From contig NW_027590150.1 of the NCBI RefSeq assembly GCF_964213995.1, positions 372,001 through 436,000 of the forward strand: a DNA stretch of 64,000 nt, read 5' to 3'. Positions within the stretch are counted from its first letter, which is position 1; each line of letters opens with the position of its first letter. This DNA is from Mustelus asterias. Lineage: Eukaryota. Shown piece after piece: positions 5,620-63,566 of this stretch. The position numbers and the translations under genes are program-made. The notes below the pieces were generated by a model. It made no database searches. It was not told where the DNA came from and saw only the letters and a program-made list of their open reading frames with translations.

Positions 5620-6633
5620 TTTGTGTGCGTGTGCATGAGCATCTCGTGCTCTGCATTAATCTTTGGCTCTGAGTTAATATGTGATTATGAGTGTTAATGT
5701 GCGCGTACATTTGCCAGTGATTGTTGATTTGTGTAGTTGGGTGTCTGCATCTGTGCGCATATTTTATTCTTTTGTCATTGTGTATATATGACTCTATTAT
5801 TGTGTGAAGTCTATGAATATATATTAATGCCACTCTTAATGCGTGCACATGTGTTTATGCCTATTGCTATGTGTTAATTTCTGTCACTCTAATAATGTTT
5901 GTTTCCCTTTCTGTGCAGTTGCCGGCGTTGGACTGGGGTCGGCACAGTAAGTAGTCTCACAACACCAGGTTAAAGTCCAACAGGTTTATTTGGTTGCACG
6001 AGCTTTCGCAGCGTTGTCCCTTCATCAGGTGACTACTTACTGTTTCCCTTTCTGTGTGCGTCTGTGTGCACGCCTGTTGACATGTCAGTGTATGTATACA
6101 CGTGTTGACATTCTTTATAATGGTGCGTTGATGTATATTTGTGTTTCGATGTGCAGTAATGTGTGCTATGGTGTTCTGTTCTATGAGCATGTTAATGTTT
6201 GCGTCTACATGTTTGTGTGTAAATGTTTTGCTGTCTGTTCTTCTATATGCAGTCTGGTGATTTGTTTATATGTATTTTCATATATGTTTGTGAATGTGTA
6301 TAACATTGTGTGTCTTTATATCTATATTCCTATCAGCGTGAACGTGTGCTAATATATGTATTTATTTGAGTCCAAGTATGTGCTTGTGTATTGATGTGGG
6401 TCTGCATGCGTGTGTATCTGTCTGTATTGTGTCTATGCATGTATGTGTTTGTGTTTGGGTCTGTACCTACTCACGTATGTGTATGTGTATGTACTTGTGT
6501 GTTTCATGTGTACATGTGTGCGTTTGTACATATTTGATTATGTGTGTGTATGTTGTTGTTTTAGTGTCTGTTTGTACAAGAGCGCGTGTCTATGTGTTCG
6601 TATGTGTGTGTGCGTGTGTATGTGTGCGTGTGC

Positions 6634-6669
<36 letters not shown>

Positions 6670-12504: not shown

Positions 12505-12628
12505 CAGCCACTCACCTGATGAAAGAGCTCCAAAAGCTCACGATTCCAAATAAGCCTGTTGGAGTTCAACCTGGTGTTGTCAGACTCCTTACTGTGCCCA
12601 CCCCAACCTAACGTCGGCATCTCCACAT
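12505..12628 (+). mobile_element. Same short Penelope-like family, hammerhead core decayed
   Basis: CTGATGA at 12516-12522, GAAA mutated to AAAA; shared body CCAAATAA.CCTGTTGGA.TT.AACCTGGTGTTGT. Confidence 0.75.
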
Positions 12629-16253: not shown

Positions 16254-16279
16254 TGATGTCAAGGACAATCACTCTGACT

Positions 16280-29017: not shown

Positions 29018-29732
29018 TGAAAGCAAACAGAAAATGCTGGAAAATCGCAGCAGGTCTGACAGCATCTGTGGACATGATGCGCAGATGCCGGCGTTAGACT
29101 GGGGTAAACACAGTAAGAGTTCTAACAACACCAGGTTAAAGTCCAACAGGTTTATTTGGTAGCAAATGCCATTAGCCTTCGGAGCCCTGCTCCTTAGCTA
29201 ATGGCATTTGCTGCCAAATAAACCTGTTGGACTTTAACCTGGTGTTGTTAAAACTCTTACAGCATCTGTGGAGACAGAATAGAGCCTGAATGACGCTTCG
29301 GCAGAGTATTCCGGATGCGTTGGAGAGATCATCATTGTTTCTAACAAGGTGTCAGTGAAGCTCCATACCTTTCCTGTGAGATGGGAATAGTTTAAATAGT
29401 TACTGTTTAATGATGTACACTATTTCGAGCCACACATAAGTTACATCAATTCACATACTGATCCCAAATATCATAATCAACTTCTCCATCCTAACTAACC
29501 TAATCAATGCCTCAATCATTAACGATATCCTAAAAAAACTTCCTAATTCCTATCCACCCTCATTATTTCCCAATTTCATCATCCGCTTCAATTTCCTCCA
29601 AATAAAAAAGGGTCATCCTGACTCAAAACGTTGGCTCTATTCTCTCTCCACAGATGCTGTCAGGCCTGTTGGGATTTTCCAGAATTTATTGTTTTTGTTC
29701 AGTTTCCAGAATCCGTAGTATTTTGCTTTTTT
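29018..29732. mobile_element. Second Penelope-like family with inverted ends, host of the 29073 insertion
   Basis: 29030-29286 (minus the nested insert) is the inverse of ~29635-29685; same family as 39144-39371. Confidence 0.7.
29073..29258. mobile_element. Fold-back copy of the same family with a 14-bp TSD
   Basis: 64-bp inverted arms 29113-29176 and 29197-29260; ACAGCATCTGTGGA at 29059-29072 and 29259-29272. Confidence 0.85.
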
Positions 29733-31129: not shown

Positions 31130-31930
31130 AAAATGAGTCCAAATATAGATAGAAATTTTAATTTAAAAGGTCAATTGAGAGTCCGTGCCTTTGACATCGA
31201 TGCAGCATTTGACGGCTTGCAGCATCAAGGAGCCGGAGCGAAACTGCAGTTAATGGGAATCAGGGGGAAACAATCCACTGGCTGGAGCACAAAGGAAGAT
31301 GGTTGTGGTTTTTAATGGTTAATCATCTCAGTCACAGGGCTTCAGGTTAGTGACCTAGCCCCAAGCTTCAGCCATCATTAAAGTTCATATGTGGGATGTT
31401 CACTGATGATTGAACAAAGTTTAGCACCAGTTCCGACTCCTCAGGTACTGACACAGTCTGCATCCATATGAAGCAAGACTTCGGAAGCATTCAGCCTTGG
31501 AATAATGAGTGATAAGTAACACTTATGCCACACAAGTGGCAGGCAATGACCCTCTCCAGTAAGGGAGATTCCAACCATCTCCCCTTCACACTAAGCAGCA
31601 TTACTAGCGCAGAATCCCTCACTATCAACATCCTGGACATTATACTTCGTGAAAATCTGAACTGGAACAGGCATTTAAATCATGTGGCTGCAACAGCAGG
31701 TCTGATGCCAGGAGTTCTGCGGCGAACAGCTCACCACCTGAATTCCCAAACCCTATCCATCATCGACAAGGCAAAAGTCAGGAGTATGAACAAAGAACAA
31801 AAAACAGTACAGCACATGAACAGGCCCTTCTGCCCACCAAGTCTGTTCCAACACAGATGATTGAATATTCTCTACTTGCCTAACTTGTGCCACTCAAAAA
31901 GCTCAATGCCATTCTGGAAAAAGTAGCTGT
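31130..31930 (+). mobile_element. Degenerate L2/CR1-superfamily LINE fragment, paralogous to ~48070-48850
   Basis: AFDIDAAFD RT motif remnant and decayed downstream coding. Confidence 0.7.
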
Positions 31931-32539
31931 CTCGAAGAACACCCCACCCACCAACCTCCCAAAGCTTGCCACCACATTCTCAAAGGAAATTAGGATTTGG
32001 AAACAAAAGTTGACTTCACATAAGTGACACCAAAATCTCATGAAACAGTTTTAAACATTTCATATCCCTGCTTATATTCAACTCGCCTCTGACCCTGTCT
32101 GTATTACACTAGGCTCTGCCTGGATCACATTCCATGAGGTCCTATCTAAGTTTTTTTCCTGCACTCTACTCAATTTGAGGTGTTCATATACGAGGCACAG
32201 ACCCTGTTAATATTATAATTTCTAAGTTATGGCTGCACTTAGCCAGTTCTCTTCTAATCTGACAAGAGGCCGTGTCTTAATTCTTACTGCCTCAGGACAT
32301 TTAACACTGTATACTAAACTGGAAATACTGTCTTCATGCATTACACATGGTACTGTCACATTTATTATACTAATAGTTCATTAGATTTTAATAGTTTAGG
32401 TCTTGCTTAAGTTAATGCTTCACCAGTCCATGTATTTGATTATTTAAGACTGTCATGTCTCCGTTTCATTGTACGTTGCAATACGTCCTAATAGCTGCTT
32501 TGTCCGAACCACAGTGTGTATCAGTCGAGGTCCTGCATC

Positions 32540-33800
32540 AACAATTACCACGAATAAAATGGGCTCTGTCTCAGTTTATATCATTCTAGGTACTGTATCA
32601 GTAATTATCACTAACACACTGGACTCTGTCTCAATTTAAACCGGTCTCAGTCCTGTATCAGTAGTGATTACTAATGCACTTGGCTCCATCTCAGTTCATA
32701 CAAGTCTCGCTCCAGTATCATTAATTACTCGGCTCTGTCTCAGTTCATATCGCTCAAGCTCCTATATCCAGTGAAACTGCACTAAAACACTATCTCCGTT
32801 TGCTTTTCCTTGACAATGTCATAAATATTTTTTTAATGTTTCTGTCATGGGGTGGTGGGTGTTATTGGAAATACCAGTATTTGATATTTGACCATCCCCA
32901 CTTGGCAGTCGGCACTAACTCATTTCTATTTTATTGGATCAGGCCCCTGTTTATATTAAAATACAGTCTGGCTCTGTTATCTGCTAGACCTGAACTCAGT
33001 TTATATTGCACTGGATACTCTCTCTGGATATTTAATATTTGATACTGACCCTGTATATATTTCACTAGACTGTGTCAGTGTTATTCCTGCACTTAACTAT
33101 GTCTCTGTTTGAGTTATGTCTGTATTACTACACGGTTCTGCGAGAAGAAGAGATAATATATTGGGATAAAAACATTGCTATCAGGCAGGATCCAGAAACG
33201 GGCAGTATTGGATCGACAGTATTTGGTTGGTGCAGTCTTGGAGGGCCGACGGGCCTTTTCCTGTGCTGTAATTTTCTTTCTTTTTTGTTCTTTGTTGACA
33301 GTGCATGCTGCACAGGGCTTGGTATCCATTTTCAATGCAGTCAGTAGAAGTAGACTTCAGATATCTCTTCTTCTTTTCCAGTGCCCAAAACCTCATCAAG
33401 TTTGCACATGCAGAAGGATGCAGAGAATTGTGTTCCCCCAACCAATTTCATCATTACTGGCATTGACTGATTAAAAACTGAGACCATGTCCAATGCAATA
33501 TAAACGTGGACACGATCAATTGCAGAAATAAGATTGCATCTAGTTTGATACAAGCAGAGACAGATCTAAATTAATGTAAACAGAGACAACGTCTCGCTTA
33601 ATATAAACAGAAACATGGTGACGTATAATATAAACAGGGACAGCGTCTAATTTAGTATAAACAGACAAAACATCCAATTTAATATGAGTAGAGATAGGCA
33701 ATATAAAATTCTACGTGCAATATAAAAAGAGTTAAGGTCTAGTGAAAAATAAACAAAGGCATGGCCTCATAACATAAGCTGACACAGGGTAAATTTACTG
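32540..33800. repeat. Degenerate ~28-58 bp AT-rich tandem repeats in both orientations
   Basis: CTCTGTCTCAGTT.ATA units at 32565-32760 and AAACAGAGACA..GTCTA.TTTAATAT units at 33550-33700. Confidence 0.6.
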
Positions 33801-33849
33801 TAATATAAAGAGACTGCTTCAGTCCCCATGAAATTTGTAGAGACGGCCG

Positions 33850-34440
33850 ACTGTCCCATCAAAATCTTACAGGACAGGAGGAACATCGGGTTAGCTGCAG
33901 AATGCAAAGTTCCCTCTGCATTGCCAAATTAAACACTCCCAAGGCAGAAATAGCATGAGTTAGATACAAGTGAATCTCCCTCTACACTATCCAAATCAAA
34001 CATTCCCAGAACAGTATACTGTCTGGAAACAGAATGAAACTCCCTCTATAAAGTCTGCTCAAACAAAATGAAGGCAGAAAGAGTATGGACTCTCTTATAG
34101 GTACAACCTCTTCTGCACTCTTCCTTTAGAGATTCGGGAGGCAGGTTTACATTAGTGTTAGTTACAGGGGAAAGACCGTCTACACAGTTCCATAAAACAC
34201 ACCCAGGTCAGGTACAGCAGAGATTAGATACGGATTAAATCTTCCTTGACAAAGTCATATCAAACATTCAAAAGGCAGGTACAGTGAGTTTAGATGCAGA
34301 GTAAATATTCCTCGACACTGTCCAGTCAAATACTCCAAGGACAGGGACAGCACCGGCTAAATATAGGGAAAGATCCTTCGATACTGCCACATCGAATCCT
34401 TACCACTCGGTACATCTCTGTTAGATACAAAAAAAAATGT
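33850..34440 (+). repeat. Degenerate ~65-bp tandem repeat (GTTAGATACAGAGTAAAGCTCCCTCTACACTGTCCCATCAAACACTCCCAGG...)
   Basis: About 8 decayed units; shorter paralogous array at ~51070-51360. Confidence 0.75.
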
Positions 34441-35339
34441 CTCAAGCATTTCAAGATCACAGGATGCTCAAGAGATCTTTTAGAGTAAATCTCACTCACG
34501 GATCCAATTTATTGAATTACATTCTTTTAGAAGCCTATAACTCTGGCTGAGAGAATACATTGGGCAGACACTGACTTTAAACTGTGGAGTGAAGACGATG
34601 AACCATCGTGGAGAGACAAGATACAAAACCAGAAAGGAGAAAGACAGAGAAAGAGATGAAACACAGGAAATTTCTACGAACACATTTGCCGTGTTATTAT
34701 ATTTCGGGATGAGAGGAATTATTTCCTAATTCTGAACATAGATATCATCAAGATGTTTTTCTTCACATAACTGATGAATAAATAATGTTGAAAAACAATC
34801 ATTACTGGAATCCGTTGATTGATTTGCATGGTTGTCTCTATTTCTGTGCTGTGTTCGTGGGGAAATATTTGTTGTGTTTTTGTCAGTCAACAATCTAATT
34901 TGGAATTTCTATTTTTGTATTTATTTACATAAACACCTCACTGGTTACAACGAAATGTCCATGACAGCAAAACCAGATAAACCGTCACTTATTGATAAGT
35001 TTCAACTCAAAGTAGAGGTTTATTTTAAGAATATTAACAGTTGGTTCAAAATGAATAGAAATGTTTTGAACATTCATTACACCAGTTGTATTTAATTAAA
35101 AGAAAATGAAAAATTCCATTTCAGAATTAGTTCTGTAAGTTCTGATGTCACAATTAATAAAGCATCTGTGAACACGCAGATATTAATTTGATTGAGGATT
35201 TAATCTGTTTAAACTAGCCAAGTTAAAAAAAAGAAACAGATCTGATGTCTGAAGTATTCCTGTCACAAATAGTGATCACACTCACACTCAGGGAAGAATA
35301 AAAAATCCAGTGTGGTTATCAATGAGAGATACAAGGAGC

Positions 35340-39095: not shown

Positions 39096-39618
39096 AATCT
39101 TCGGTTTTCATGTTATTTCCAAAGAGACGACGTTGTTTGAAGTATAAAAGCAAATTACTGCGGATCCTGGAATTGAAACCATAAGAATAAATGCTGGTAA
39201 ATCTCAGCAGGCCTGGTAATATCTGTAAGGAGAGCTAAGAGCTGACGTTTCGAGTCCAGATGGCCCTTTGAAAAAGCTTCGACAAAGGGTCATCTGTGCT
39301 CGAAACGTCAGCTCTTCTTTCTCCTTACAGATGATGCCAGACTTGCTGAGATTTTCCAGCATTTTCTCTTTACGTTGTTTTAAGTGTCTTTGGGCGGAGT
39401 AAATTGATTCTGAATCCCTGGGGCGGAGGAATTGTAGGTTGATCCAAATCTATCCTACTGAAGAAGACACTATAAACGTTGTCCAGGGACCTGTGGGACC
39501 CGAACCACCCAGTTGCTGCCAATATTCAACGCGTTGGCCTTACAGCTCAGTCTCAGGGAGCCTCAGAGACGCCCGGTTTCTGCCTCTGGCTGAGTGAACA
39601 TAACCTCCGATTCGATAC
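39096..39618 (-). pseudogene. IGHV: Degenerate, 3'-truncated VH pseudogene interrupted by an insertion
   Basis: Reads [48 protein letters not shown]...APGIQNQFTPPKDT*; collinear with 24625-24350. Acceptor mutated to CAA, several stops, no YYC or RSS. Leader-intron remnant at ~39972-40063 matches ~24638-24729. Confidence 0.9.
39144..39371. mobile_element. Palindromic Penelope-like element with a 14-bp TSD, inside the pseudo-VH
   Basis: Inverted arms ~39190-39270 and ~39283-39365; ACGTTGTTT(G/T)AAGT at 39130-39143 and 39372-39385; GGGTC...CTCGAAACGTC hammerhead-like half. Confidence 0.8.
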
Positions 39619-39634
39619 TTGTAAAAATATAAAG

Positions 39635-39975
39635 AAAACAATGAAAACGAAAGGCCACACACCCCGAACATACTCTCTCACCTTTTTACATCGGGAACAA
39701 GATACAAAAGTATTAGGACACGGACAAACCGAAAACAAAATCGCTTCTTTCCTGCTGCAATCAGACTTTTGAATGAACCTTCCTCTCATTAAGTTGATCT
39801 TTCTCTATACCCTAGCTATGACTACAACACTACATTCTGCACTCGCTCGTTTCCATCTCTATGTACGGTATGCTTTCTCTGTATAGTGCGCAAGAAACAA
39901 TAATTTTCATTGTGTACTAATATGCACGCCAATAATAAATCAAATGAAACCAAACCAAATCAAATCAAATAAATC
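39635..39975 (+). mobile_element. Rex-Babar-like LINE 3' end inserted in the pseudo-VH intron
   Basis: RTNRKQNRFFPAAIRLLN-type C-terminus and (AATCA)n tail; splits sequence that is contiguous at ~24635. Confidence 0.7.
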
Positions 39976-40369
39976 AAAAACCCTGCGGATTATTCCCGAT
40001 GAATTGATTGCTGACACTGCGACATTCCAGAGATAGGCTAACATTGAGACAGTAACAGTGAGATCCATTGTCACGTCTCTGCTAGTCCAAGAGGTGAAAT
40101 TGCATTTGAGCCTCTGTTATAGAAAAAAAAACAATTTCATTGTAAATTAAGTCCCTTCATTTATCCACCCCTCCACAAGGGAATAGACATAAAGAAGATG
40201 ACATTAACTTATCAGGGTAAAGATGTCAATCTGATTTGCAATAATTCTGTGTCTCTAGCACATTGCATCAAAAATATAATTCATTAAAGGAATTATTATC
40301 GATTTATTGTATTTCTGGTGTGGATAGCTATCACTGTAACTTGGGACTGGATATAAGAAGAAAGGAATA

Positions 40370-40698
40370 CAATGGCCTAGTGTTTTTATCGCGAGACAAT
40401 TAATCCACAAACTCAACTAATGGCCTCAGGATCCGGCTTCGAGTCCCGCCACGGCAGATGGTGGAATTTAAATTCAGTAAAAACATCTGGAATCAAGAAT
40501 CTACTTATGACCATGATATCATTGCCGATTGTGTAAAAACCTATCTGGTTCACTAATGTCTTTTAGGGAAGGGAATCTGCTGTCCTTACTTGGTCTGGCC
40601 TACATGTGATTCCAGAGCCACAACAATGTGGTTAGCTCTCAACTGCCCTCGGATAAGAGGTGGGCCATAAATGCTGATCGTTCAGCGGCACCCATGTC
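40370..40698 (+). mobile_element. Second SINE type (DeuSINE/SacSINE-like)
   Basis: GGCAGATGGTGGAATTT...CTGGTTCACTAATGTC...GGCCTACATGTGA core. Confidence 0.7.
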
Positions 40699-41007
40699 CA
40701 TAGAATCCCTACAGAGCAGAAGGAGGCCATTTGGCCTATCAGGCCCGCACCGACACCATTCTCTCCCAGGCCCTATACCCATCACCCCACGTATATTCCC
40801 TGCTAATTCCCTTGACACTATGGGACAATTTATCATCGCCAATCAGCCTAAGCAGCACATCCTTGGATCGTATGAGTAAATAGGCAGACAATTGGAGAAT
40901 GTGCATGCTCCACAGAGACAGTGACTCCACACAGACCCAAACCGGTAATTGAACCCGGGTACGTGGCGCTGTGAGGCAGAAGTGCTAACAACTATGCCAC
41001 TGTGCCT
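40699..41007 (-). mobile_element. HE1-like SINE
   Basis: tRNA-like head at ~41007-40945, core and tail. Confidence 0.75.
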
Positions 41008-43687
41008 CCCACGAATGAATTCAAAAAAGAAAATCCTCATATGATACAGTATTACACTTTATATTTCTCCAACAGCTCCTTAACCCTGTGACAATTAGCG
41101 GTGAACGAAACCTGGTTGGCTTATAATTAATTGAGCTGGCAGAGAAAAAAAATTGAAATCGACTATTGACAGAATTGAATAAATCAGGACGGACACAGCG
41201 ATCAGGAAAGTTCTCCGTCAGCATCCAAATCATTGTAGCTCATCTTATTGACCACCGGCTGTCTCACATTCACTGGTAGTGGGAGCACAGGGCATCAGGA
41301 CTTTGCAGCATATTGCACAATATCACAAGAGTAAATGCTTTATCTTCCACAGAACCAGGTTATGAACTGGACATTTCTTCACAGATTGGCAGCTCTGAGA
41401 GGCACTGTTAAATAATCAAAATCAAATTATGCTGCACATTAGAACATGGTACTACTCAGGTACAAGAGACGTTGCCTTTCTAATGAGGGGCAGAAGACTG
41501 AGAATATTCCAGGAATCCGCGCTGTTCAAGGCAATTATATGACTTTATTTTACTTTTAATTATTTTCATTTTTGGGCCATTACACTGATCTCATTGGACT
41601 GAGGGATTGGGGACATCAAAATCTCTTTCCTGCACTTCATTGAAGTTGCTCACAAAGTGGCTTTAATTGTTGGAAGGACATTTATTTGTAAGTCATACAA
41701 ATGAAATAGCACCCAGCCAATTGACTCGTTCCCGATACTGTTTAATCACATAATCAACAGTGCATTCATTAAAAGTATTTGCTTGGAATGAATACCATTT
41801 AAAACGTGTCTTTCTTGTGGGAATCAGACATTTATTGCATAACTGGCTAAGTCCCATTTTATCCTTACATATTAACGTTAATCTGTCCACGCAGTGTTTG
41901 GCAGCGGTCCAACCTGCTGCCAAATATCCGAAAATATTTACAGGAAGCATCTGAGGGTGTTTGTTCAGAAACTCAAAGATCTGTTTCCTCAGTACTGAGC
42001 GCTTGGCTGCAAGCCAACTTCAAACTCTCAGCATTGTCAATGGGGCCTATTTATAAATAAATCTGCCCAGCAACAGTACTGGAGGCAACTTAATTATTTT
42101 TAATGTTGTAAACCTGTATGAATGTTTCCCATTTCTTTGGAAAAGAAAGTTTCCATCTTCTCTGGCTCCTTGTTAGCAACAATGACGATCTCTCCAACAC
42201 AACAAAGCACTGTGATCGATGGATAGTAATAAATACAGGCAGATTGTGAGAGTTGATTCAGAGAGGTGATATATCTTATACTGCATAAACATGTCTGCTT
42301 GTGCTTTATTTCACTTGATTCTTCCATGGGACGTGGGAGTCTCTGGAAAGACCAACATTTGTTTCCTGTGCATAATTTATTTTCAACTGAGCGGTGTGCT
42401 AGGGCATTTCGGAAGGCATTGCCCAGTTACACATATTGCTGCCTGTCTGTAGTCACACCCTGGTGAGACCAAGTAGGGATGGCAGATTTCCTTGATTGGG
42501 GAATCAGAGAGGTTTATCTGGTCGCTGTAAGTATGAATCCAGATTTATTGATTGAAATCAAATTCCACCAGCTGCCATGGTCCGATGTAATCTCGTGTTC
42601 CCTCATCACTGGCTTGGGCTTCTGGATTACTGCTCCACTGGCATTAATATTACGCCACCATCGACACAAGAAATAAATAAATGCCTGTGTTGACGCAGGG
42701 ATGAACGATAGTTGGATACCTGAATGTTTTCATTGAGGAATCAGTGAATGGACTGATGGATGCGACGATAGCTGGTCCTGAAATTTGTTGTTCTACATTC
42801 GCTTACTTGTGTTTTACTACTTCAAAAATCGAATCTAGTCCTTTATTACAATTGTGTCAGTCTACAACCTTTAATCCTTCCAGATTTTCTGGGTGAAATC
42901 CATCCCCGGGATATCGGGAACACATGAATTGAACCTCACTAAGATTAGTCTGATTTTTCCCCATGTTGGTGGTAAATCTTCAAATCCAAAATGGAAAGAG
43001 GGAACATGATTAGGTTGATGAGGGAGGATTGTAATATTTGGAACATGTGGCCTTTCCAGTGCAACAAAATCACTCAACAGATCATCACCCAAATTAGTGA
43101 AGCCTAATAAATAAATAATGTGGCAACGAAAATATTGTGTAACTCACTGGACAGCTTGAAGTTTTGAATTACTTTCCAGAACTGTGTAAAAATGAATCGG
43201 GATTTTTAAGCTCCTATAAATTCATATTAGATACAGATACTTTCAGTTATACAGCCATTATAAAAATGGTCACACATTCCAGTTATTTATCAGGAGTTTC
43301 TGTGTGATGATGAGGTGATTACTTGTAATAAAGCGTAGAGGCTGCTGGGTAGCTGCTACTATTTGGTCTGATTTAAATCAATTTCCCACTGAATTCTGAG
43401 GCAGATTTGATTCTTTCGTGACAGAAAGGCGAATGCTGTCTCAATACATTTGAATCTCAATGAATTGTACTAAATAAACTGAAATTATATTCGCATCAAA
43501 TAAAATACTGACAATAATTGGTGAAATATTAATTAATTTTTGTGAATTGAAGATTATTGGTAATATTAGCGCCAGGCAATGACCACCTCCAAAAAGGGAG
43601 AATCTACCCATTGCTCCTTGTCACTCAATGATATTATGATACTGAATCACCCACTATAAACATCGTCGGTGTTACCAATGGCTAACA

Positions 43688-44511
43688 AGAATATAAGAAC
43701 ATAAGAAGTAGGAGCAGGAGTAGGCCATCTAGCCCCACGAGCCTGCCCCGCCATTCAATAAAACCATGGCTGATCTGATAGTGTGTTCCACTTACCCGCC
43801 CGCTCCCCATAACCCTTAATTCCCTTATTGATCAGAAATCTATCTACCTGTGACTTAAACATATTGAACGAGGTAGCCTCCACTGCTTCAATGGGCAGAG
43901 AATTCATTCCAAAGATTCACTACCCTCTGAGAGAAGAAGTTCCTCCTCAACTCTGTTCTAAACTTATTTTGAGGCTGTGTCCTCTCGTTCTTGTTTCCTT
44001 TCTAAGTGGAAAGAATCTCTCTGCCTCTACCCTGTCTAGTCCGTTCATTATCTTATATGTCTCTATAAGATCTCTCCTCAGCCTTCTAAACTCCAATGAG
44101 TACAGGCCCAATCTACTCAATCTCTCCTCATAAGCTAACCCCCTCATCTCCGGTATCAACCTGGTGAACCTTCTCTGTACTCCCTCCAAGGCCAATATAT
44201 CCTTCCGCAAATAAGGGGACCAAAATTGCACACAGCACTCTAGTTGCGGCCTCACCAGTACATTGTACAATTGTAGCAGGACCTGCCTGCTTTTATACTC
44301 CATCCCCTTCGCGATAAAGGCCAACATTCCATTTGCCTTCTTGATCACCTGCTGCACCTGCACTCTGATTTTTTCCGATTCATGCACAAGGACCCACAGG
44401 TCTCTCTGCACAGTAGCATGTTGTAATTTTTCATCATATAAATAAGAGTCCATTTTACTATTATTGCTTCCAAAGTGGATAACCTCACACTTGTCAACGT
44501 TATATTCCATC
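43688..44511 (-). mobile_element. CR1-clade LINE 3' fragment nested in an L2-like remnant
   Basis: ORF 43947-44510; (TAAGAACA)-type tail; L2-like sequence on both sides (~43570-43680 and ~44515-45080). Confidence 0.88.
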
Positions 44512-46164
44512 CAGCTCCGGTTGGAAAATCAGGTCAGCCTGCTGTGAGTAACCCACCTCCAGACTCCCCAAACCTGTGCACCAACTACACGACATAAGTC
44601 AGGAGAGTAAAAGGGTTCTTTCCACTTGCTTGAATAAGTGGAGCTCAAACAACATTCAAGAATCTTCATACCATTCAGGAATAAGCTGCCGGCTTGACTG
44701 GCATAGAATTTGAAAATGCTCACTCCCTCCACCACAGAGAGCAGTATGATGTACCATTTACAAGTTTCACTTCCGAAACTCACCAAGACTCCTTAGGCAG
44801 CAACTTCCAACCACACGACAGTTACCATCTGGAAGGACAGGAGTAACAGTTACCAGGGAATATCACCTATAAATTCCCCTCCAAATCAGTCATATACCTG
44901 ACTTGTAAACATATCGTCCTTCCTACACTGTCGCTGGATTGAAATCCTAGAACAGCACAGTGTGGGTACCGACACCACAGGTTCTGCAGCAATTCAAGCA
45001 GTTAGCTCATCACCAGCTTACTAAGGGCAATTAGGTATAGGCAATAAATGCTGACTTAGCCAGCAACACCCATGTCCCTTGAATTAAAACTTAAATGCAT
45101 TAATGTTTATGAATGGATGATAACTTGTGAACAAAATTGTGCAACTTTGTGAATGGATGGCAATTGGTGAAAATAAATACCAACTTTCTGAACATTTATG
45201 ACCTTCTCTTTCTCTGCCAGGAGATAGGTTCCGTTCCACAGGAGATTCATGATTCAAAAGCATCACACTATCCGAAGACAAGGTCGACAGAAGAGGCGGC
45301 AACATCTGCAGCTGTATCTCAATCATAGCATCACGGGAAAGGCCTTTGATAGGATTACAATTTTGTTACTCGTCTGCTTGAAGACCGGGATTAACCTGAA
45401 GCACAGTGTTGTGGTTGTGTTGGAAGATATACGTATCATAACCATACTTTCGTGAATCGCAAGAAGATATTCGACACTCGCATCAGAGCAGAGACTGCAA
45501 GATTTGGGGGAACTAGGCTCTCCACCAAAAAGTCCTCGGTCTCATTCATGACACACAAAACGACAATCTACAACCACAACTGATAGCGTCATGGGCAACA
45601 CTTGTAGTTGAATCAATCTCTCAAAAGTTGTCCCCCTCAGTCATCAACAAATTTGACATATGCAAAAGAAACCAAACTGAAATGAATGTGTTTATTGTGT
45701 TTCTAACTTCTATTGTAAATGGAAGGATGCCGGTTATCATTGTGACGTTGATTTGTAAACAATATGACATTTTTCCGACAACGCACGCAGAGGCACACAC
45801 ATATATTCTCTCTTGTTCTCATTCTGTCCCACAAATTGTCTCCCTTTCATACGCACGTACACGTACAGAAATAGAAACACACACACACACTTTCCTTCAA
45901 CTTAACACTCCATCTTGGCTTCCGAGGAATCACCTCATCATCACACAGAAACTCCTGATAAATAACTGGAATGTGTGACCAACTATCTTTCAGATGGAAC
46001 GATGAACAAATAAACTTTCCCCAACGCCATGTTTGCTGAGCTGGACGTTAAAGGTCCCATGGTCTCCAACAGCGCCCTGGTCAACATCCCTCCTTTTAAC
46101 CAAAATGAACAAAAATGCATTACCATGGATTGAGCTATTTTGATCTGATGCTGATCTGGCAACA

Positions 46165-46975
46165 TCGGAACATAGCCGCAGGAGTAGGCCATTCAGCTCC
46201 TCGAACTCGCCTCGCCATTCAATAAGTTCATGGCTGATCTGTGGCCGAATACATGTACCTTCCCTCGGCCCATGTTGATACCCCTGTTCAATAAAAGAAA
46301 ATCGATCTCAGACTTCAATCTAACAATTGAACCAGCACCCACCGGCGTCTGCGGAAGAGAGTTCCAAACATCCATCTCTCTCTGCGTGTACAAATTCTTT
46401 CTATTAACTCTCCTGAACGGCCTGTCCCTATTTTTTAAAACTATGGCCCTTTATTCTCGAACTTTCAACGTGTGGAAACACTTTATCTTTATCTACCTTC
46501 CCTGTAAATATTTCATAGATTTCTATCAGAGCAGCCCTCAACCTTCTGAATTCGAGAGAAAAAGTCTTAATTTGTCTGATCTCTCCTCGCAACTTGCGTT
46601 GAACTCCCTCCAGAGCCAACATCTTTCCAAAGATTTGTTGCCCATGCCTGCTCACAGTACTCTTTTTGTGGTGTAACAAAGATTTTCACAATTGCAGTAC
46701 AACATCTGCATCCCTATACTCCAGTCCTTTGGGAATGAAGGCCAGCATTCCATTGGCCTTAATGTCTATTTTCTGCATCAGTTCGTGGCATTTTGAGAAA
46801 CTATGCGCCTGAAGGCCCAAATCTCGTTGGGCATCCACTAAATTTAATTTTGTGCCTTCTAAAAATACCTTGATCTATCATTTGGACATTTGACTTTTTA
46901 TGCCATTATCTAAGCCATTAATGAATACTGTCAATAATTGAGGCCCCAAGACAGATTCCTGCGGGACACCACTTA
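46165..46975 (-). mobile_element. Old degenerate CR1-like LINE fragment
   Basis: Broken RT C-terminal motifs (LEGVQR, FSLEFRRLR) and 3' UTR. Confidence 0.75.
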
Positions 46976-47399
46976 AGCTGCATGATTCAGCAACGTACGT
47001 GTACAATTCGTTGCACCTTACAATTTGGCACCTTCCGCAGAAGGGGATGTGGTATTACATTAATGGATGTGAATTCGTGGTACATTCATATCATAGATCA
47101 TACCTAACAGCGATATTTTCACAGTAACTGTAATTACAGAGTTTTGCCAGCAGATGGAAATGAAATCTTGATGGGTTACATTACATGACGCAATGAATGC
47201 CGCAATAAATACTACACTGGACCCTGTATCTGTTCATTTTGAATTGACCTCCATATGTATCTATTTAGAATGGGCACAGTCTCTGATTATACTACATTAT
47301 ATTATATGGCACCCTGTTTAAACTAATATTGCACCAGTACATGTCAATGTATACATCACACAATCACTCTGATCCGAATATTTCCAGGAAGGATCAAAC

Positions 47400-49230
47400 T
47401 TTGCAGTTCTGCCGCATGCAGTCCTGAATGGTCGTGGACATTAATACAATTAACCGCCGCAGGAGCCTCAAATAAAACCCACATTCTTAATGATGTGGGA
47501 CCTCAGCAAAGGGTAAAGAAACAAAACTGAAACAATTGCTACCATCTCCAGCCGGAAGTGCCGAGAAGATGTTCCATCTCAGCCTCCTCCTGAGGTCCCC
47601 AGCATCACAGATGCCTGTTTCCAAGCAGTTCAATTCATTTCACAGTATAATATTGGAACAGGAATAGGCCATTCAGCCCCTGGAGCCCGCTCCGCCACGC
47701 AATATGTTCATGATTGATCTGTGGCCTAACACTGAGCTGAAGGCTTTGGACACTGCAAAGGTTATTGGTCCTGACAATATTTCAGCAATAATAATGACGA
47801 TTTGTGCTCTGGAGCTAGCTGCGCCCCAGCCAATCTATTCAAGTATATACATCACGGTCACATACCCAACAGTATGGAAAATTGGCAGACATGTCCTGTC
47901 ACGAAAAGCAGGGAAAATCCAATCCGGCCAATTATCGCCCAATGCGTCCTCACTCGATCAACGTAATAGAAAGTATCAAGGATCATCCGATCAGCAATAA
48001 TAATAATCCGCTCAATGATGCTCTCTCTGGGTCCCACTAGGGGCACGCGGTTCCAGAAATCATTTGAACTTAGTCCAAATATAGTAGAAATAGCTGATTT
48101 AATAAGGTAAGGTGAGAGTGCCTGCCCTCGACAATAACGCAGCACTTGACTGATTATGGCATCAATAAGCCCGAGCGAAGCTGCAGTCAATGGGGATCCG
48201 GGGGTAAACATTCCACTGGCTTCAGTCAAACCGAACATAGAGTAAGATGGTTGTGGTTGTTGAAAGCCAATCATCTGAGTCACAGGGCTTTGCTGCAGGA
48301 AGTCCTCAGGATAGTGTGCTCGGCCTAATCTTCACCCTTCATTGGAAGGTCAGAAGTGGGATGTTCACTAATGATTGCACAGTGTTCAGCACATTTGCGA
48401 CTCCTCAGATACTGAAGCAGTCCGTGTCCATATGCAGCAAGACTTAGAACACATTCAGGCTTTTCTGAGGATTAGAGAATAACATTCACGCCACACAAGT
48501 GGCAGGCAATGACCTTCTGCAAGTAAGAGAGATTCCAAACATCTCCCTTTGACACTAAATGGCATGACGACGGCTGAAACCCCCACTATCATCATTCTGT
48601 GAATTACCGTTGATTAAAAACTGAACTAGGCAGCCATGTAAAAAATATTGCGACAAGGACATGTCAGACGCTGGGAATTTTGTGTTGAGTCACTCACCCC
48701 TTGACTTCTCAAACCCTCTCCATCATGTACAGAGCAAAGGTCAGGAGTCTGATTGAATGTTCTCCACTTGTCTGACGTGTGACCCTGAAGCAACACCCAA
48801 ATATCTCGAAACCACCCAGCAAAAAGCAGGTTGCTCGATGAACGCCCCACACACCACTTTAAGCATTCACTCTCTGCATCACAGATGTACAACTCCAGTA
48901 GTGTGAACTATACACAACTTGGAGAGCGGCAACATAATCCTTCGATAGCACCTTCCAAACACATTCATTCTGATACTTAAAACGACAAGGGCAGCAGATG
49001 CACGAGAACACAATTACCTGCAAGTGCCCATAAAACCCACACGCCATCTTGACTGTATATTTCAGTGTCAATGGATGAAAACCTTGTAACTCCCTTCCTG
49101 TCAGCACTGTGCGTGTATTTACTCTGTGGAATTCAATGGCTCGAGAAGAGTGCTCACCACTACATTCTCAAAGGGAAAAACGAAGTGGCAACAAATGCTA
49201 CTTTACCAGTGACACAAAAATCTCATAAAA
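47400..49230 (+). mobile_element. Degenerate L2/CR1-superfamily LINE
   Basis: LKALDTAK..GPDNI and AGSPQDSVLG remnants followed by a 3' UTR-like segment. Confidence 0.7.
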
Positions 49231-49443
49231 TAACTTTAAACATATCATATCTCTGCTTATATTCAATTAACCCCCATTTCTGTTTGTATTGAAATAGGCC
49301 ATGTCTCGATCACATTACAACATGTCTTATCTCCGTTATTTCCCTACTCGGCTCATTATCAGTTGTTCCGACAAGAAGCCAAGGCCCTACTTCGACGATA
49401 GTTTCTGAGTTATGACTGTGCTGAACTATGTTTCAGTTAATAC

Positions 49444-49745
49444 GGGCGGCACGGTGGCACAATAGTTATCACTGCTGCCTGATAGCACCAGGGACCCGGT
49501 TTCAATTCCCAGCTATGGTGACTGTCTGTGTGTCGTCTGCATGTTCTCCCTGTGTCTGGGTGGGTTTCATCCGGGTCCTCCGGTTTCCTCCCACAGTCCG
49601 AAGGACGTGCTGTTTAGGTGCATTTTGGCCATGCTAAATTCTCCCCTAAATTCTACCCGAACAGGCGACTAGGGGATTTTCACAGTAACTTAATTGCAGT
49701 GTTGATGTAAGCCTACTTGTGACACTAACAAATAAGCTTTAAAAC
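49444..49745 (+). mobile_element. HE1-like SINE
   Basis: GGGCGGCACGGTGGCAC head, B-box-like motif and core. Confidence 0.8.
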
Positions 49746-49894
49746 TTTAATCTGGCTGTGTCTCAATTCCTACTGCATCACAGCATTTATCTGTGTATAC
49801 TAAACTGAAACAACATTCTTACATTACAAATGTTTCGGTCACAGTATTTGCTTGAATAGTTCATTATCAAATTAACTCGATCTTGTTTTAGTTA

Positions 49895-50348
49895 GAACTT
49901 GCCGTATGAGGAACGTTTGAGGACTCTGGGTCTGTACTCGATGGAGTTAAGAAGAATGGGGGGGTAGATCTTATTGAAACTTGCAGGATACTGCGAGGGC
50001 TGGATAGAGTGAACATGGAGAGGATGTTTCCCCTCGTAGGAAAAGCTAGAACCAGAGGGCACAACCTCACGCTAAAGGGGTGATCCTTTAAAACAGAGAT
50101 GAGGAAAAATGTCTTCAGCCAGAGAGTGGTGAATCTGTGGAATTCTTTGCCATAGCAGGCTGTGGAGGCCAAGTCATTGAGTGTCTTTAAGATAGAGTTA
50201 GATAGGTTCTTGATTGATAAAGGGATCAGGGGTTATGGGCAAAAGGCAGGAGAATGAAGATCAGAAAAGTATCAGCCATGATTGAATGGCGGAGCAGTCT
50301 CGATGGGCCGAGTGGCCCATTTCTGCTACTATGTCTTATGGTATGGTC
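49895..50348 (+). mobile_element. CR1-clade LINE 3' end
   Basis: YEERLRTLGLYS... coding remnant, 3' UTR hairpin and tail. Confidence 0.85.
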
Positions 50349-52204
50349 TTAATGCTGCATCAGTCCATGTATGTGTTGATTTCATCCTGACTCTGCCTAC
50401 ATTTAATGCGACCAGGTCACTGTTATTAATGCACTAGATTATGCCTCTGTTCGAATTATGGTCGCATTACTCTACGGTTCTGTGAGGAGGAGAGATAATA
50501 CAATACATAAATATGCTGTGCTAAAAACATCTGTATTCAGCAGGATCCTGAAACAGAAACTATTGGATCGACAGTGCATCCAGCGCAGGGTTTGATATCT
50601 ACTTGCAATGCAGTCAGCAGAATTGCATTTCAGATATCACTTCTTCCAGTGCCCAAGACCAGTCTCCATCCCAGAGAGTTGTGTCTGTCGGAGGATGCAG
50701 AGAAATGTGTTCCCCCAGCCACTTTTCACATTATTGCACCTTGTCTAGCGCAGTAATAACTGAGTCCGTGCCCAATATAAAATGAAAGTGGACATAGTGA
50801 AGTGCAGAACGAAGACCGCTTCCAGTTTAGTACAGAGACAGGTCTACATTAATAGAAGCAGAGTCACTGTCGAGCTTTATGTAAACAGAGATATGGTGAC
50901 GTGTAATATAAACAGAGACAGCATCTAGTTTAGTATAAACAGAGAGCACATCTAGTGTAATATGAACAGAGACAGAACGTTCTTTTATATAAACTGACAC
51001 AGAGATTAGTTAATTTAACATCAGCAGACCTGGATCACAGACGAGTGCATTATAGAGACAGGGCCTAGTGTCCCATCAACCATTCCAAGGACAGGTGTAG
51101 CATGTGTTTAGGTACCGAATGTTAAGCTCCCTTCACATTGCAACATTAAACACTCCCAAGGCAGGTGTAGCACGGGATAGATACGAAGTGAATCTCCATC
51201 TCCACTGTCCTAATCATACATTCCCAGAAAATGTAGGCTGTTTAGAAACAGTAAAACTCTCTCTACTCTGTCCATTGAAACAATTGGGTGGCCGGGACAG
51301 GACGAGTTAGATCCAGGGAATGACCAATATACATTTTGGAGAAAAGCTCCCTCGATACATTCCAATTAATTGAACTAGACCCATTTAGTTAGAAGCCTAT
51401 TGATATGGCTGAGAGAATACATTAGCTGGAGTTTGACTTGATGTTGTTGACAATGACCTGTCGTGGAGAGACAAAACAAGACACAGAATCAGATAGCAGA
51501 AAAACAGAGAGAAAAAGCACAAGAAATCTCCACAAATATATTTGCCGTGGCATTATATTTCGAGATTGGAGGGAATCTTTCCTACTTTTGAATACAGAGA
51601 TGATCATAGCCTTTTTTGCACATATAGCCGATGAAGAAAAATGTCCAAAAAACATTCACGACTGGAATCCGTTGATTTATATGCATGTTTGTCTATTTCT
51701 GTGCTGTGTTGATGGGGAAATTTTTGTTGTCTTTTTCTCAATCAATAAATTTATTCTAGGATTGCTACTTCTCTGTTTACTTACACAAACACCTCACTGG
51801 TTAGAATGAAGTATCACGGCAGCAAAACCAGATAAACAGTCACTTATTGATTCGTTTCAACTCAAAATAACGGTTTAATTTAAGTATATTGACAATTGGT
51901 TCAAAATGAATAGAAACTTTGTGAATACCCATTAGAACAGATGCTATTTAATTCAAATAAAGAGATACATTCTAATCAAAAATTTGTTCAGAGTATTCTG
52001 ATGTCACAATAAATGAAACATAGTTGAACAGGCTGGTATTCCACCGAATGTCAATTTGATTGATGATTTAATCTACTTAAACTGGACAAGTTAAGACATC
52101 AGGCAGCGGAATGAATACAATCACATTAATCTCAGAGCTCTCAACATATCAAATCTTGCATTTTCTAATGTTAATATTTAGAAAGAACTTGCATTGAGTT
52201 TATG

Positions 52205-53861: not shown

Positions 53862-54145
53862 TATTTGTGTCACCGGTAGGCATACATTAATACTGCAATG
53901 AAGTTACTGTGAAAATGCCCTACTGTCACACTCCAGCCCCTACTCAGGTGCGCTGAGCGAAAATTTAGCATGGTCAACGCACCTAACCAACACGTCTTTC
54001 AGACTGTTGGAGGAAACTGCAGCACCCGAAGGAAACCCATGCAGACACGGGGAGAATGCAGACTCTGCACAGACAGTGGCCCAAGCTGGGAATCATATCC
54101 GAGTCCCTGGCGCTATGAGGCCCGCCACTATGCCACTGTGCCACC
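53862..54145 (-). mobile_element. HE1-like SINE
   Basis: Family similarity to 30192-30487. Confidence 0.75.
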
Positions 54146-54233
54146 CTCGTTTTATATGTTTTATACGTTTCAGTCACAATTTTATATGTTTCGATCAGAT
54201 GCCCTCTCATCCTTCTAAATTCAAGTGAATACA

Positions 54234-54358
54234 TGAGGTGGAAATACCAGCGTTGGAATGGGGTGAACACAGTAAGTCGTCTCACAACACCAGGTTAAAG
54301 TCCAACAGGTTTATTTGGAATCACGAGCTTTCAGAGCACCGCTCCTTCATCAGGTGAG
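54234..54358 (-). mobile_element. Short Penelope-like insertion with a 13-bp TSD
   Basis: TCAAGTGAATACA at 54221-54233 and 54359-54371; inserted in a CR1 remnant. Confidence 0.85.
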
Positions 54359-54360
54359 TC
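54318..54360 (-). ncRNA. Minimal type I hammerhead ribozyme motif
   Basis: GACTCAC-CTGATGA-A-GGAGC-GGT-GCTCT-GAAA-GC-TC-GTGATTC: stem I, core, stem II, palindromic AGCT in place of stem III, and UH site. Confidence 0.72.
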
Positions 54361-54842
54361 AAGTGAATACAGGCCCAGTCGAATCAACCTAACCTCCTAG
54401 GACAGTCCCACCAATTCCGGTATCAGTTGTAGTGCCCACAGACCCTTTCTTATTTTCCGAGATCAGAACTACACGCACTACACGGGGCATGGTCCTAGGA
54501 AGGCCCGGCATAACTGCAGTAAGGCTTCCGTAATTCTGAACTCAAATCTTCGTGCAGAGAAGGCCTTCCTAATTGCTTGCTGTGCATGCCTCTCCAATTT
54601 TATTGACTGGTGTACAAGGACACGCAGATCCATTTCTACGTCACACTTCCAAATATATGTTGCGTTCTGCTTTACACACCAGTATATAACTGCACATTTA
54701 GTCACCCTGTACTGCATCTGCCACGTGTTCACCCATTCACTCAACTTGTCCAGATCCTCCACACAGCTCACAATTACGCCCAGTTATATATCGCCAACCC
54801 TTTTGAAAATGTTACATTTGATTCCCTCATCCAGATCCCACA

Positions 54843-57811: not shown

Positions 57812-60800
57812 ACATAAGAACATAAGAACATAAGAAATAGGAGTAGGAGTCGGCCATCTAGCCCCTCAAGCCTGCTCCGCCATTCAATGAGATCATGGCT
57901 GATCTGGTAGTGGGTTCAGTTCCACTTACCCGCCCGCTCCCCATAACCCTTAATTCCCTTAATGGTTAAAAATCTATCTATCTGTGACTTAAACACATTT
58001 AACGAGGTAGCCTCTACTGCTTCATTGGGCAGAGAATTCCAAAGATTCACTACCCTCTGGGAGAAGAAGTTCCTCCTCAACTCTGTTCTAAATTGACTCC
58101 CCCGTATTTTGAGGCTATGCCCCCTAGTTCTTGTTTCCTTAATAAGTGGAAATAACCTCGCTGCTTCTACCCTGTCTCGCCCCTTCATTATCTTATATGT
58201 CTCTATAAGATCTCCCCTCAACCTTCTAAACTCCAATGAGTACAGGCCCAGTCTACTCAATCTCTCTTCATAAGCTAACCCCCTCATCTCCGGAATCAAC
58301 CTGGTGAACCTTCTCTGTACCCCCGCCAAAGCTAATATATCATTTCTTAAATAAGGGGACGAAAGTTGTACACAGTATTCTAGGTCCTGCCTCACCAGTA
58401 CCCTATACAGCTGCAGCACGACCTCCCTGCTTTTATACTTCATCCCTCTCACGATAAAGGCCAACATTCCATTTGCCTTCTTGATTACCTGCTGCACCTG
58501 TAAACTGAGTTTTTGTGATTCATGCACAAGAACCCCAGGTCCCTCTGCACAGTACCATGTTGTAATTTTTCACCGTTTAAATAAAAGTCAATTTTACTAT
58601 TATTCCTTCCAAAGTGGATAACCTCACACTTACCAACGTTATACTCCATCTGCCAGATCCTTGCCCACTCACTTAACCTATCCAAATCTCTCTGCAGACT
58701 CTCTGTGTCCTCCACGCAATTTGCTTTCCCACTCATCTTTGTGTCATCCGCAAACTTTGTTACCCTACACTCGGTCCCCTCCTCCAGATCGTCTATGTAT
58801 ATGGTAAATAGTTGAGGCCCCAGCACCAATCCATGCGGCACGCCACTAGTCACTGATTGCCAACCGGAAAAGCACCAATTTATTCCGACTCTCTGCTTTC
58901 TGTTAGATAGCCAATCCTCAATCCACACTAATACTTTACCCCCAACTCCGTGTACCTTTATCTTACGCAGCAACCTTTTGTGAGGCACCTTATCGAATGC
59001 CTTCTGGAAATCTAAATACACCACATCCACCGGTTCCCCTCTGTCAACCGCACTCATTATATCCTCAACAAATTCCAGTAAAGTAGTCAAACATGACTTT
59101 CCCTTCATGAATCCATGCTGCGTCTGCTTGATTAAACCATTCTTTTCCAGTTGTCCTGCTATTTCTTCCTTAATGATAGATTCCAGCATTTTCCCAACTC
59201 CGGATGTTAAGCTAACCAGCCTGTAGTTACCTGTCTTTTGTCTACCTCCTTTTTTAAACAGTGGCGTTGCATTAGCTGTTTTCCAATCAGCTGGCACCTC
59301 CCCAGAGTCCAGTGAATTTTGATAACTTACAACTAATGCATTTGCTATTTCTTCTGCCGTTTCTTTTAGTACCCTGGGATGCATTCCATCTGGACCAGGG
59401 GACTTGTGTACCTTTAGTCCCATTAGCCGACCCAGCACTACCTCTTTAGTAATAGTGATCGTTTTAAGGTCCTCACACCCTACAGTCCCATGACCATCAA
59501 TTATTGGTAAGCTATTTGTGTCCTCCACTGTGAAGACCGACACAAAAACCTTGTTTAAGGCCTCGGCCATTTCCTCGTTTCCTATTATTAAATCCCCCTT
59601 CTCATCTTCTAAGGGACCAACATTTACTTTCGCCACTCTTTTCCGTTTTATATGTTTGTAAAAACTTTTACTATCAGTTTTTATATTTTGTGCCAGTTTA
59701 CTTTCATAATCTATCTTTCCTTTCTTTATTGCTTTCTTGGTAGCTTTTTGTTGTTTTTTAAAGCTTTCCCAATTTTCTAGTTCGCCACTAATTTTGGCCT
59801 CTCTGTATGCATTTGTTTTTAATTTGATACTCTCCTTTATTTCCTTGGTTATCCATGGCTGGTTATCCCTTTTCTTACATTCCTTCTTTTTCACTGGAAT
59901 ATATTTTTGCTGAGTCCTGAGAAAAATCTCCGTAAACATCCTCCACTGTTCCTCAACTGTCCCTCCAATTAGTCTGTGTTCCCAGGCTACATTAGCCAAC
60001 TCCGCCCTCATCCTTTTGTAATCCCCCTTGTTCAAGCAGAGGACACTGGTTTGGGACGCTACTTTCTCACCCTCCACCTGTATTAGAAATTCAACCATAT
60101 TGTGATCACTCATTCCAAGAGGATCCCTCACAAGGAGATCATTAATTTTACCTGTCTCATTACACAGGACCAGATCCAAGATAGCTTGCCCTCTTTTTAG
60201 GTCAAACCAAATAAACAAACTTAGATTAAGTCAGGACAAAGTAAAAGGGGCAGCTCCCCAAAAGGCGGGGGGGGGGGGGGGCGAGGAACAGCCAGAACAG
60301 AAATCAAAGTACAAAGGAAACTTAAAAAACATCAAATTAAAATGTGATTATTAGGGTCGATAACGCACCCCAACCCCTGCGGTGTCCAGCGGGCGCGGAA
60401 GGCATCAACCATGCCCGTGGACACCGCATGCTCCCTCTCCAGGGACACCCGGCCGCGAACGTAGCCACGGTAGAGGGGAAGACAGTCAGGATGGACGGCC
60501 CCCTCGATCGCCCGCTGCCTGGACCGATAAATGGCGCGTTCCGCCAGGCCCAGGAGCAGGTTCACGAGGAGGTCGCCATCCCGACACTCCCCTCTCCGCA
60601 CCGGGTGTCCGTAGATCAGGAGTGTGGGACTGAAGTGCAAACAGAACATCAATAAAAGGTTCTTTAGGAAAACATAAAGGGAGTGCAGCCGAAGACACAC
60701 AACATAGACATGGTCCACGGACTCCACAAGGCCACAGAAAGGGCAGTCTTCGGATCCCGTGAACCAGTGAATCCTACGGTTGTGCGGCACTGCTGCATGC

Positions 60801-63493: not shown

Positions 63494-63566
63494 AGATTCC
63501 AGTGAGAATTGAACTCGCGACCCCTGGTTTACAAAGCCAGTGCTTAAACCACTGAGCCATGGAGCC
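63494..63566 (-). pseudogene. tRNA-Thr(TGT) pseudogene
   Basis: GGCTCCATGGCTCAGTGGTTTAAGCACTGGCTTTGTAAACCAGGGGTCGCGAGTTCAATTCTCACTGGAATCT; 73 nt matching vertebrate tRNA-Thr(UGU), but with a C-A mismatch in each of the four stems and no T-run terminator. Confidence 0.85.

Follow-up and report, generated by a model that had tools for sequence, protein, structure and literature searches.

Introduction

Hammerhead ribozymes of Penelope-like elements (PLEs) were first published in 2014 (Cervera and De la Pena, PMC4209133). The minimal version described there is a type I motif made of CUGANGA plus one extra base, a 5-bp stem II, GAAA, a palindromic 15.2-16.2 without loop III, UH and a 4-bp stem I, and it resides mostly in dispersed single copies of truncated PLEs. 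One schistosome minimal hammerhead gave no cleavage as a monomer and weak cleavage as a dimer (PMC4209133). Endonuclease-positive PLEs are reported to insert as a unit of pLTR, an optional tail of 30-40 bp and an adjacent inverted, 5'-truncated copy (PMC8557442, PMC3846280, PMC2377424), and a CX2-5CxxC linker between RT and endonuclease is given as a feature of the Neptune/Nematis type (PMC8557442). Work on the Anolis carolinensis element Poseidon (PAc; Frangieh et al. 2024, PMC11167929) describes nicking by the GIY-YIG domain, RT initiation at two internal positions that delimit the tail, an insertion substrate of uncut, unprocessed RNA and a ribozyme assisted by protein. Animal non-LTR retrozymes, finally, are short, non-coding and pLTR-related, carry a type I hammerhead and larger TSDs, and form tandem repeats of 150-450 bp yielding circular RNAs (PMC7229834; bioRxiv 10.64898/2026.07.22.740005). 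How pLTRs are regenerated and what role the hammerhead plays are treated as open questions in this literature (PMC2377424, PMC8557442, PMC11167929).

The short shark unit analysed here shares every listed feature of the PLE minimal hammerhead, including its dispersal as truncated single copies; its UCAC/GUGA stem I is identical to that of the lamprey motif and its G-C palindrome is the one reported from turtle, the exception being a U at 11.1 (PMC4209133). Like endonuclease-positive PLE units it has target-site duplications (TSDs), a tail on the direct copy alone, inverted 5' pieces, a tail located at the ORF start and the Neptune/Nematis-typical CX2-5CxxC in linked ORFs, but here the last 125 bp remain, the ORF is absent at the focal site, and TSDs measure 13-16 bp compared with 8-10 bp in the rotifer examples of these sources. 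PAc likewise carries its hammerhead at the pLTR-ORF junction and has two 3' ends a tail apart and an uncut RNA template; however, its ORF begins at stem II and its RT starts 111-118 nt inside the ORF, whereas the ORF linked to the shark unit has its start at the outer 3' end, ~120 nt past the core, and the linker is that of a different clade. Unlike the tandem retrozymes, the shark unit occurs as dispersed monomers with a minimal ribozyme, and longer copies appear to continue into an ORF.

What is new is this shark family member; the literature already covers PLE minimal hammerheads with their dispersed and truncated copies, their tails and their inverted pieces. The available rows of the supplementary alignment of PMC4209133 include no shark, and the words "shark" and "Callorhinchus" are absent from that file; 5' ends clustering at stem I are not discussed in the available text of the same paper. 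We found no description of this shark family or of such a cluster in a literature search that left subscription papers and repeat databases outside its scope, and the family may well be catalogued already, e.g. in the supplements of bioRxiv 10.64898/2026.07.22.740005.

Genomic setting and insertion site

The window, i.e. the whole stretch of 64,000 nucleotides that was analysed, is an animal immunoglobulin heavy-chain locus of compact V-to-C layout, set among LINE fragments and SINE-like repeats. This layout indicates a shark, as do the shark proteins that are the nearest named relatives of the linked element (see below). An IgM-like cluster spans 4950-24640 on the minus strand (Table 1), and a second V-like stretch with 73% identity lies at 39378-39629. 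Long, patchy similarity (66-78%, same orientation) between 24391-35226 and 39378-52094 suggests that the surroundings of the V segment were duplicated long ago. The sole Rfam match at gathering level in the whole window is a tRNA-Thr(TGT)-like gene on the minus strand (63494-63566; ARAGORN and Rfam, 46.5 bits), which adjoins a SINE-like repeat and is either a true tRNA or a SINE head.

The focal insertion splits a decayed LINE fragment, which we take to be CR1-like, and is bounded by the 13-bp direct repeat TCAAGTGAATACA, whose two copies are 100% identical and separated by 125 bp. When the flanks were aligned separately to paralogous LINE fragments, both repeat copies fell on the same 13 bases (58232-58244; 44092-44104), which argues for a single target site duplicated at insertion, and the translated flanks form the two halves of a single LINE RT-region motif. 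Such repeats within 10 nt or less of both family ends have a chance expectation of ~8e-6, and this value together with the paralogue alignment excludes a chance origin. The perfect 13-bp TSD around a unit of ~125 bp, claimed in a preliminary description of this DNA, was thus borne out on two paralogues, and 54234-54358 is a real, short and old insertion of a PLE end piece. Its 5' edge (54358) lies 1 nt beyond the 4-bp stem I of the hammerhead, with the predicted cut 34 nt downstream of it, in agreement with the boundary at stem I proposed in that description. At the other end, minus-strand TG, the first two bases of the 54221-54233 TSD, completes the terminal ATG of the element (54234-54232). 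The focal copy contains no ORF, and no second hammerhead lies near it, the closest same-strand copy with a core being 48 kb distant.

Table 1. Positions of the features discussed in the text (coordinates of the window)
Feature	Position	Strand	Basis
Target-site duplication, element's 3' side	54221..54233	+	repeat and paralogue alignment
Target-site duplication, element's 5' side	54359..54371	+	repeat and paralogue alignment
125-bp insertion, almost certainly a PLE pLTR made up of hammerhead, ~50-nt conserved middle and tail	54234..54358	-	
~35-nt PLE tail, with its end at the position of the ORF start codon	54234..54268	-	missing from the inverted pieces of sister copies
Decayed LINE host fragment, split by the insertion	54179..54425	-	72-85% to LINE fragments at 27.0k, 44.0k and 58.2k
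Minimal type I hammerhead	54321..54357	-	sequence, fold, descriptor; consensus in the PMC4209133 supplement
Hammerhead stem I	54357-54354 with 54324-54321	-	
Hammerhead CUGAUGA	54353-54347	-	
Hammerhead bulged A, between positions 9 and 10.1	54346	-	
Hammerhead stem II	54345-54341 with 54337-54333	-	
Hammerhead GAAA	54332-54329	-	
Hammerhead palindromic AGCU (15.2-16.2; stem III possible solely between two copies)	54329-54326	-	
Hammerhead C17, UH cut site	54325; predicted cut 54325/54324	-	
U11.1 replacing the family's C (G-U, not G-C, at the stem II base; CpG position)	54333	-	
Sister copy 5.9k	5900..6056	-	16-bp TSD (5900-5915, 6041-6056), 125-bp insert
Sister copy 12.5k	12511..12626	+	96/116 identical to the focal copy
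Sister copy 29k, other subfamily	29059..29272	-	14-bp TSD (29059-29072, 29259-29272), 186-bp insert
V-set frame, IgM-like heavy-chain cluster	24252-24638	-	
Four C1-set frames, IgM-like heavy-chain cluster	8258-12028	-	
Transmembrane-like exon, IgM-like heavy-chain cluster	near 4980	-	

The hammerhead motif

The minus strand reads UCAC-CUGAUGA-A-GGAGC(GGU)GCUCU-GAAA-GC-UC-GUGA at 54357-54321, letter for letter as first described, and judged by its sequence the motif matches the published PLE minimal hammerhead consensus except for the U at 11.1 (PMC4209133). Calling it near-intact was appropriate in that the PLE-type, type I motif is complete, with a palindromic AGCU as stem III, and needs qualifying for one lesion, G10.1-U11.1. 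The U at 54333 probably reflects decay of a CpG position. A C at this site, which restores G10.1-C11.1, accounts for 65%, 69% and 37% of the contig depth summed over each of three public sequencing runs (X1, X6 and X10, see below) and is also found in two of the three sister copies by alignment (12.5k and 29k) and in one of two metagenome loci (L002, see below). Given that G-U or A-U at 10.1-11.1 is present in some published representatives (PMC4209133 supplement), G10.1-U11.1 is no proof of inactivity.

A descriptor of the minimal hammerhead, with stems I and II of at least 4 bp and a palindromic stem III, had the focal site as its sole match in the window and matched once in 2,688 null windows (dinucleotide model), a rarity that rules out a chance origin of the motif; a relaxed version gave seven matches in null windows. 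The hammerhead search envisaged earlier was thus successful with the descriptor, and Rfam on 53900-54700 returned no match at E up to 10. The MFE fold contains stems I and II at an ordinary, uninformative energy (z -0.70). Self-duplex formation of the AGCU 4-mer amounts to -2.5 kcal/mol, and in two-strand MFE folds the stem II arms were paired across copies and the double hammerhead was absent. Covariation of stem II had been named as a touchstone in the preliminary description; among the few alignable copies, i.e. the four window copies and the metagenome loci L001 and L002, no double-sided, compensatory change was found in stem I or II. Stem II arms are either unchanged or decayed and loops vary across this set, and stem I of L002 gains a U-A pair. 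CUGAUGA and GAAA showed no variants among the best 40 of 126 variants in public-run contigs.

Link to an autonomous element

The focal unit is almost certainly a lone pLTR of an endonuclease-positive PLE of the Neptune/Nematis type. A degenerate hammerhead pattern recovered two metagenome loci, L001 and L002, whose motif shares 92% identity with that of the focal copy over 37 nt. Their hammerhead adjoins a PLE-type RT fragment (63% to protein P0005) and an endonuclease frame; this frame itself had no Pfam match, and full-length ORFs of the RT + GIY-YIG type are among its relatives. For P0005, the best named relatives come from Heptranchias, Scyliorhinus and Mustelus and are annotated RT + endonuclease ORFs with DKG and CX2-5CxxC, and the linker was present in six of six proteins checked (DKG in five). 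Both metagenome loci are rearranged PLEs, with an inverted endonuclease-linker piece and the RT fragment on the opposite strand; their sequence downstream of the hammerhead is unlike the shark unit, and L002 ends in ATG ~134 nt past the core.

Further evidence came from predicted proteins, one of 319 of which matched the unit. In this protein (P0132, ENA), residues 22-43 are an antisense reading of the unit's 3' end, and residues 42-107 share 79% identity with the endonuclease C-terminus of an RT + GIY-YIG-type protein of Heptranchias perlo. If its frame represents contiguous DNA, as assumed for an ENA gene call, P0132 represents a pLTR in inverted orientation joined to a PLE that is truncated at its 5' end. 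The 15 proteins returned for P0132 included three further ENA frames with the same antisense unit reading, and an antisense peptide is common to five predicted proteins (P0132, P0326, P0328 and P0329 from ENA, P0331 from EukProt); in the four ENA frames it directly continues the stretch read from the 3' end of the unit. On the opposite strand, the codons of this peptide are compatible with the P0005 N-terminus at 13-17 of 22-27 positions, at a shift of 0, i.e. with Met1 on the unit's last codon, and with that of P0151 at 14-19 of 20-25 (shuffle means 6.4-8.1; 0 of 1000 shuffles as high). Over eight full-length ORFs, these two were positive, P0172 was weak (reached by 1-204 of 1000 shuffles) and five were negative. 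The start-codon compatibility of P0005 and P0151, together with the ATG ends of the focal and 29k copies, argues that the unit is a pLTR extending from hammerhead to start codon. Based on predicted proteins and the compatibility test, longer relatives would run from the unit's 3' end directly into the start of the RT + GIY-YIG ORF. The autonomous RT + GIY-YIG partner anticipated in the preliminary description has thereby been found, linked through predicted proteins and metagenome contigs and not at the focal locus, and no single DNA piece with the unit and an intact ORF was seen.

In the window, searches with eight named PLE proteins gave no match (tblastn, 1e-3), and a Pfam scan of 243 of the 287 stop-to-stop frames of at least 62 aa (34 low-complexity or N-poor frames filtered, 10 others omitted) found RT, endonuclease/phosphatase and Ig domains and no GIY-YIG; neither search revealed a PLE coding remnant. 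The 26-nt family motif had no match in metagenome and viral contigs, nor had a 22-nt part of it in prokaryote genomes. Relatives of P0005 were absent from viral contigs, and no protein matched the 5.9k copy when 40 residues of its sense frame were compared. PLE RT/endonuclease segments also occur inside annotated shark/turtle isoforms of cytochrome P450, epsin-2, a divergent kinase and TANGO2 (P0015, P0246, P0301, P0020, P0022), where they are either exonised PLE pieces or annotation artefacts.

Family copies in the window and in public runs

Three further family loci (5.9k, 12.5k and 29k) lie in the window, all four copies being monomers outside any tandem array. The 5.9k copy (95/111 aligned bases identical to the focal copy) has a direct part beginning at stem I, carries at its 5' end a short piece in inverted orientation, and has a broken stem II. 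Its insert (5916-6040) has sense orientation and sits between the transmembrane-like exon and the last constant exon, so that it would be part of the membrane-form pre-mRNA; ribozyme cleavage is unlikely there because stem II is broken. The 12.5k copy starts at the same base as the focal one, has a 5-nt deletion in stem II and an altered GAAA, and showed no flanking duplication within 45 nt. The insert of the 29k copy (95/114 aligned bases identical to the focal copy) combines a ~60-nt inverted, tail-less piece with a direct part that begins inside the hammerhead and, like the focal copy, ends in ATG at the ORF-start position; its TSD was verified on a paralogous repeat. TSDs of 13-16 bp thus surround three of the four copies, two of which (focal and 29k) passed the paralogue test, which supports the earlier view of a mobile family inserted by a retro-mechanism. 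Both inverted pieces (5.9k and 29k) start ~35-38 nt inward of the direct copy's 3' end, an offset that is the optional tail and inverted pLTR described for PLEs (PMC8557442, PMC3846280, PMC11167929). "Ribozyme-terminated", another term of the preliminary description, does not fit: in the RNA sense, the hammerhead occupies the 5' end, at which reverse transcription comes to a halt, and a tail leading to the ORF start codon forms the 3' end.

Contigs and reads of four of 21 public runs (X1, X6, X10, X21) were aligned to the 600-bp stretch 54130-54729. The hammerhead-unit family is very abundant in three of them, with 33,308 (X1), 26,523 (X6) and 74,714 (X10) matching contigs and a summed depth, reflecting abundance and not copy number, of 10-25 million inside the unit compared with tens to hundreds at 54430-54489. 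X21 contained just six reads of a diverged variant over 54270-54340 in 1,523 million letters, and the family is nearly absent or much diverged in this organism, in contrast to the organisms of the other three runs. X1 contigs span both junctions of the focal insertion with 1-3 differences, and an X10 contig spans the 5' junction at ~86% identity; the insertion is therefore old or common to paralogous loci. Over 54131-54422 in X1, junction-spanning contigs had a depth of 100-130 versus 22-30 for single-contig joints, and several paralogous Ig clusters may carry the focal insertion. Contigs of X1 and X6 that skip 139-142 nt were rejected as empty sites, for which a skip of 138 nt is expected; they may be other LINE copies.

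All five opposite-strand joints among the best 15 of 52 joints end at 54358-54361 (in 9, 5 and 13 contigs), 34-37 nt upstream of the predicted cut and with variable partners (54296-54323), in a comparison where the aligned reference carries family DNA just to 54359 and the joints are the best-supported ones. Joints also accumulate at 54316-54318, the departure point of another subfamily, and loose contig ends lie at 54268-54271, the inner boundary of the tail. The 5' junction cluster, 4-8 nt upstream of the catalytic core, is thus suggestive, the data being partial and biased. Loose ends beyond 54359 share their first few bases, so some copies extend further upstream. One joint in X10 represents a head-to-tail return of 80 nt in two contigs, and some tandems may exist elsewhere.

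These 5' joints, the start of three of the four window copies within 1 nt of each other at stem I, the 80-nt return and the very high abundance would also be compatible with a separate, non-autonomous SINE-/retrozyme-like family, in which a short pLTR-derived master (perhaps tandem) is transcribed alone and mobilised in trans by the PLE protein, the more so as pLTR-derived retrozymes, including a chondrichthyan one, have been reported (bioRxiv 10.64898/2026.07.22.740005). We consider such a master unlikely, given that the same sequence enters the PLE ORF start in longer copies, that some copies reach further upstream, that the window has no tandem array, and that non-LTR retrozymes are described as tandem repeats with mostly canonical hammerheads (PMC7229834). 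The "non-autonomous family" of the preliminary description accordingly gives way to the pLTR of an autonomous element, for which a short copy suffices, a separate master being less likely.

Insertion route

Our preferred explanation, with a probability of roughly three in four, is that the lone pLTR of an autonomous PLE inserted directly as a very short copy. We infer this route from the observed TSD, the anatomy of the family, the uncut hammerhead in its copies and the link to the ORF start. The GIY-YIG domain of the element would nick the target with a 13-nt stagger, and the RT would prime on the nick and begin at an internal position of the RNA, the outer one of two start sites, located at the ORF start codon; an inner site ~35 nt upstream would yield the tail-less pieces. 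The RT would then copy ~125 nt through the uncut hammerhead and halt just past stem I, and joining and repair would generate the TSD. In other copies, nascent DNA might fold back or restart at the inner site, resulting in inverted 5' pieces. The predicted motif of the parent element would most likely act on tandem transcripts, either by dimerising or assisted by a protein, and cutting would be dispensable for insertion. Dimer cleavage of PLE hammerheads has reportedly been studied by Lunse et al. At the focal site, the ribozyme is most likely inert, the copy being old and the G-C at the base of stem II lost.

As the focal copy and all three sisters retain sequence upstream of the predicted cut, which is what the unprocessed insertion substrate of PAc would lead one to expect (PMC11167929), their template was very probably uncleaved RNA. 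Templates of ribozyme-cut or circularised RNA, with the hammerhead itself setting the insertion boundary, have been proposed for PLEs (PMC4209133) and would agree with a boundary located at the ribozyme. However, a linear cut product would begin at 54324, downstream of where all four window copies and the listed joints end, and copying of a circle would run past stem I into downstream sequence; moreover, catalytic mutants had no effect on insertion in the one PLE tested (PMC11167929). We therefore regard a cut or circular template as highly improbable.

One pLTR between TSDs is likewise the predicted product of recombination between two direct pLTRs of a former full-length insertion, comparable to a solo LTR, and direct short insertion and pLTR recombination are indistinguishable from one copy. 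Solo pLTRs arising by recombination or deletion have been described, but those in the same source lack TSDs (PMC3846280). Recombination would furthermore require very many full-length insertions recombining over ~125 bp, and the usual PLE outcome is reported to be 5' truncation during insertion (PMC8557442, PMC8969392; bioRxiv 10.64898/2026.07.22.740005), making this origin rather improbable in our view.

Within the preferred route of direct short insertion, we tentatively consider that the 5' end of template RNA in the shark PLE family might be fixed at 4-8 nt upstream of the core, as either a transcription start or a processed end. Internal priming ~125 nt downstream would then produce a fixed-length run-off cDNA, like strong-stop DNA, that could integrate alone, fold back into inverted repeats or jump templates and thereby regenerate the pLTR. 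We hold this to be somewhat doubtful as yet.

Implications

The single locus carries little weight, as it is an old and probably inert end of a retroelement. The family, on the other hand, provides a natural and very large collection of PLE insertion junctions. The 5' cluster 4-8 nt upstream of the core perhaps marks where the template has its 5' end, and if the clustering upstream of stem I holds genome-wide, it would identify uncut RNA as the template in vivo and locate the start of this RNA. A fixed 5' end, if true, would explain both the defined 5' edge of pLTRs and the short, hammerhead-headed units that fill shark genomes.
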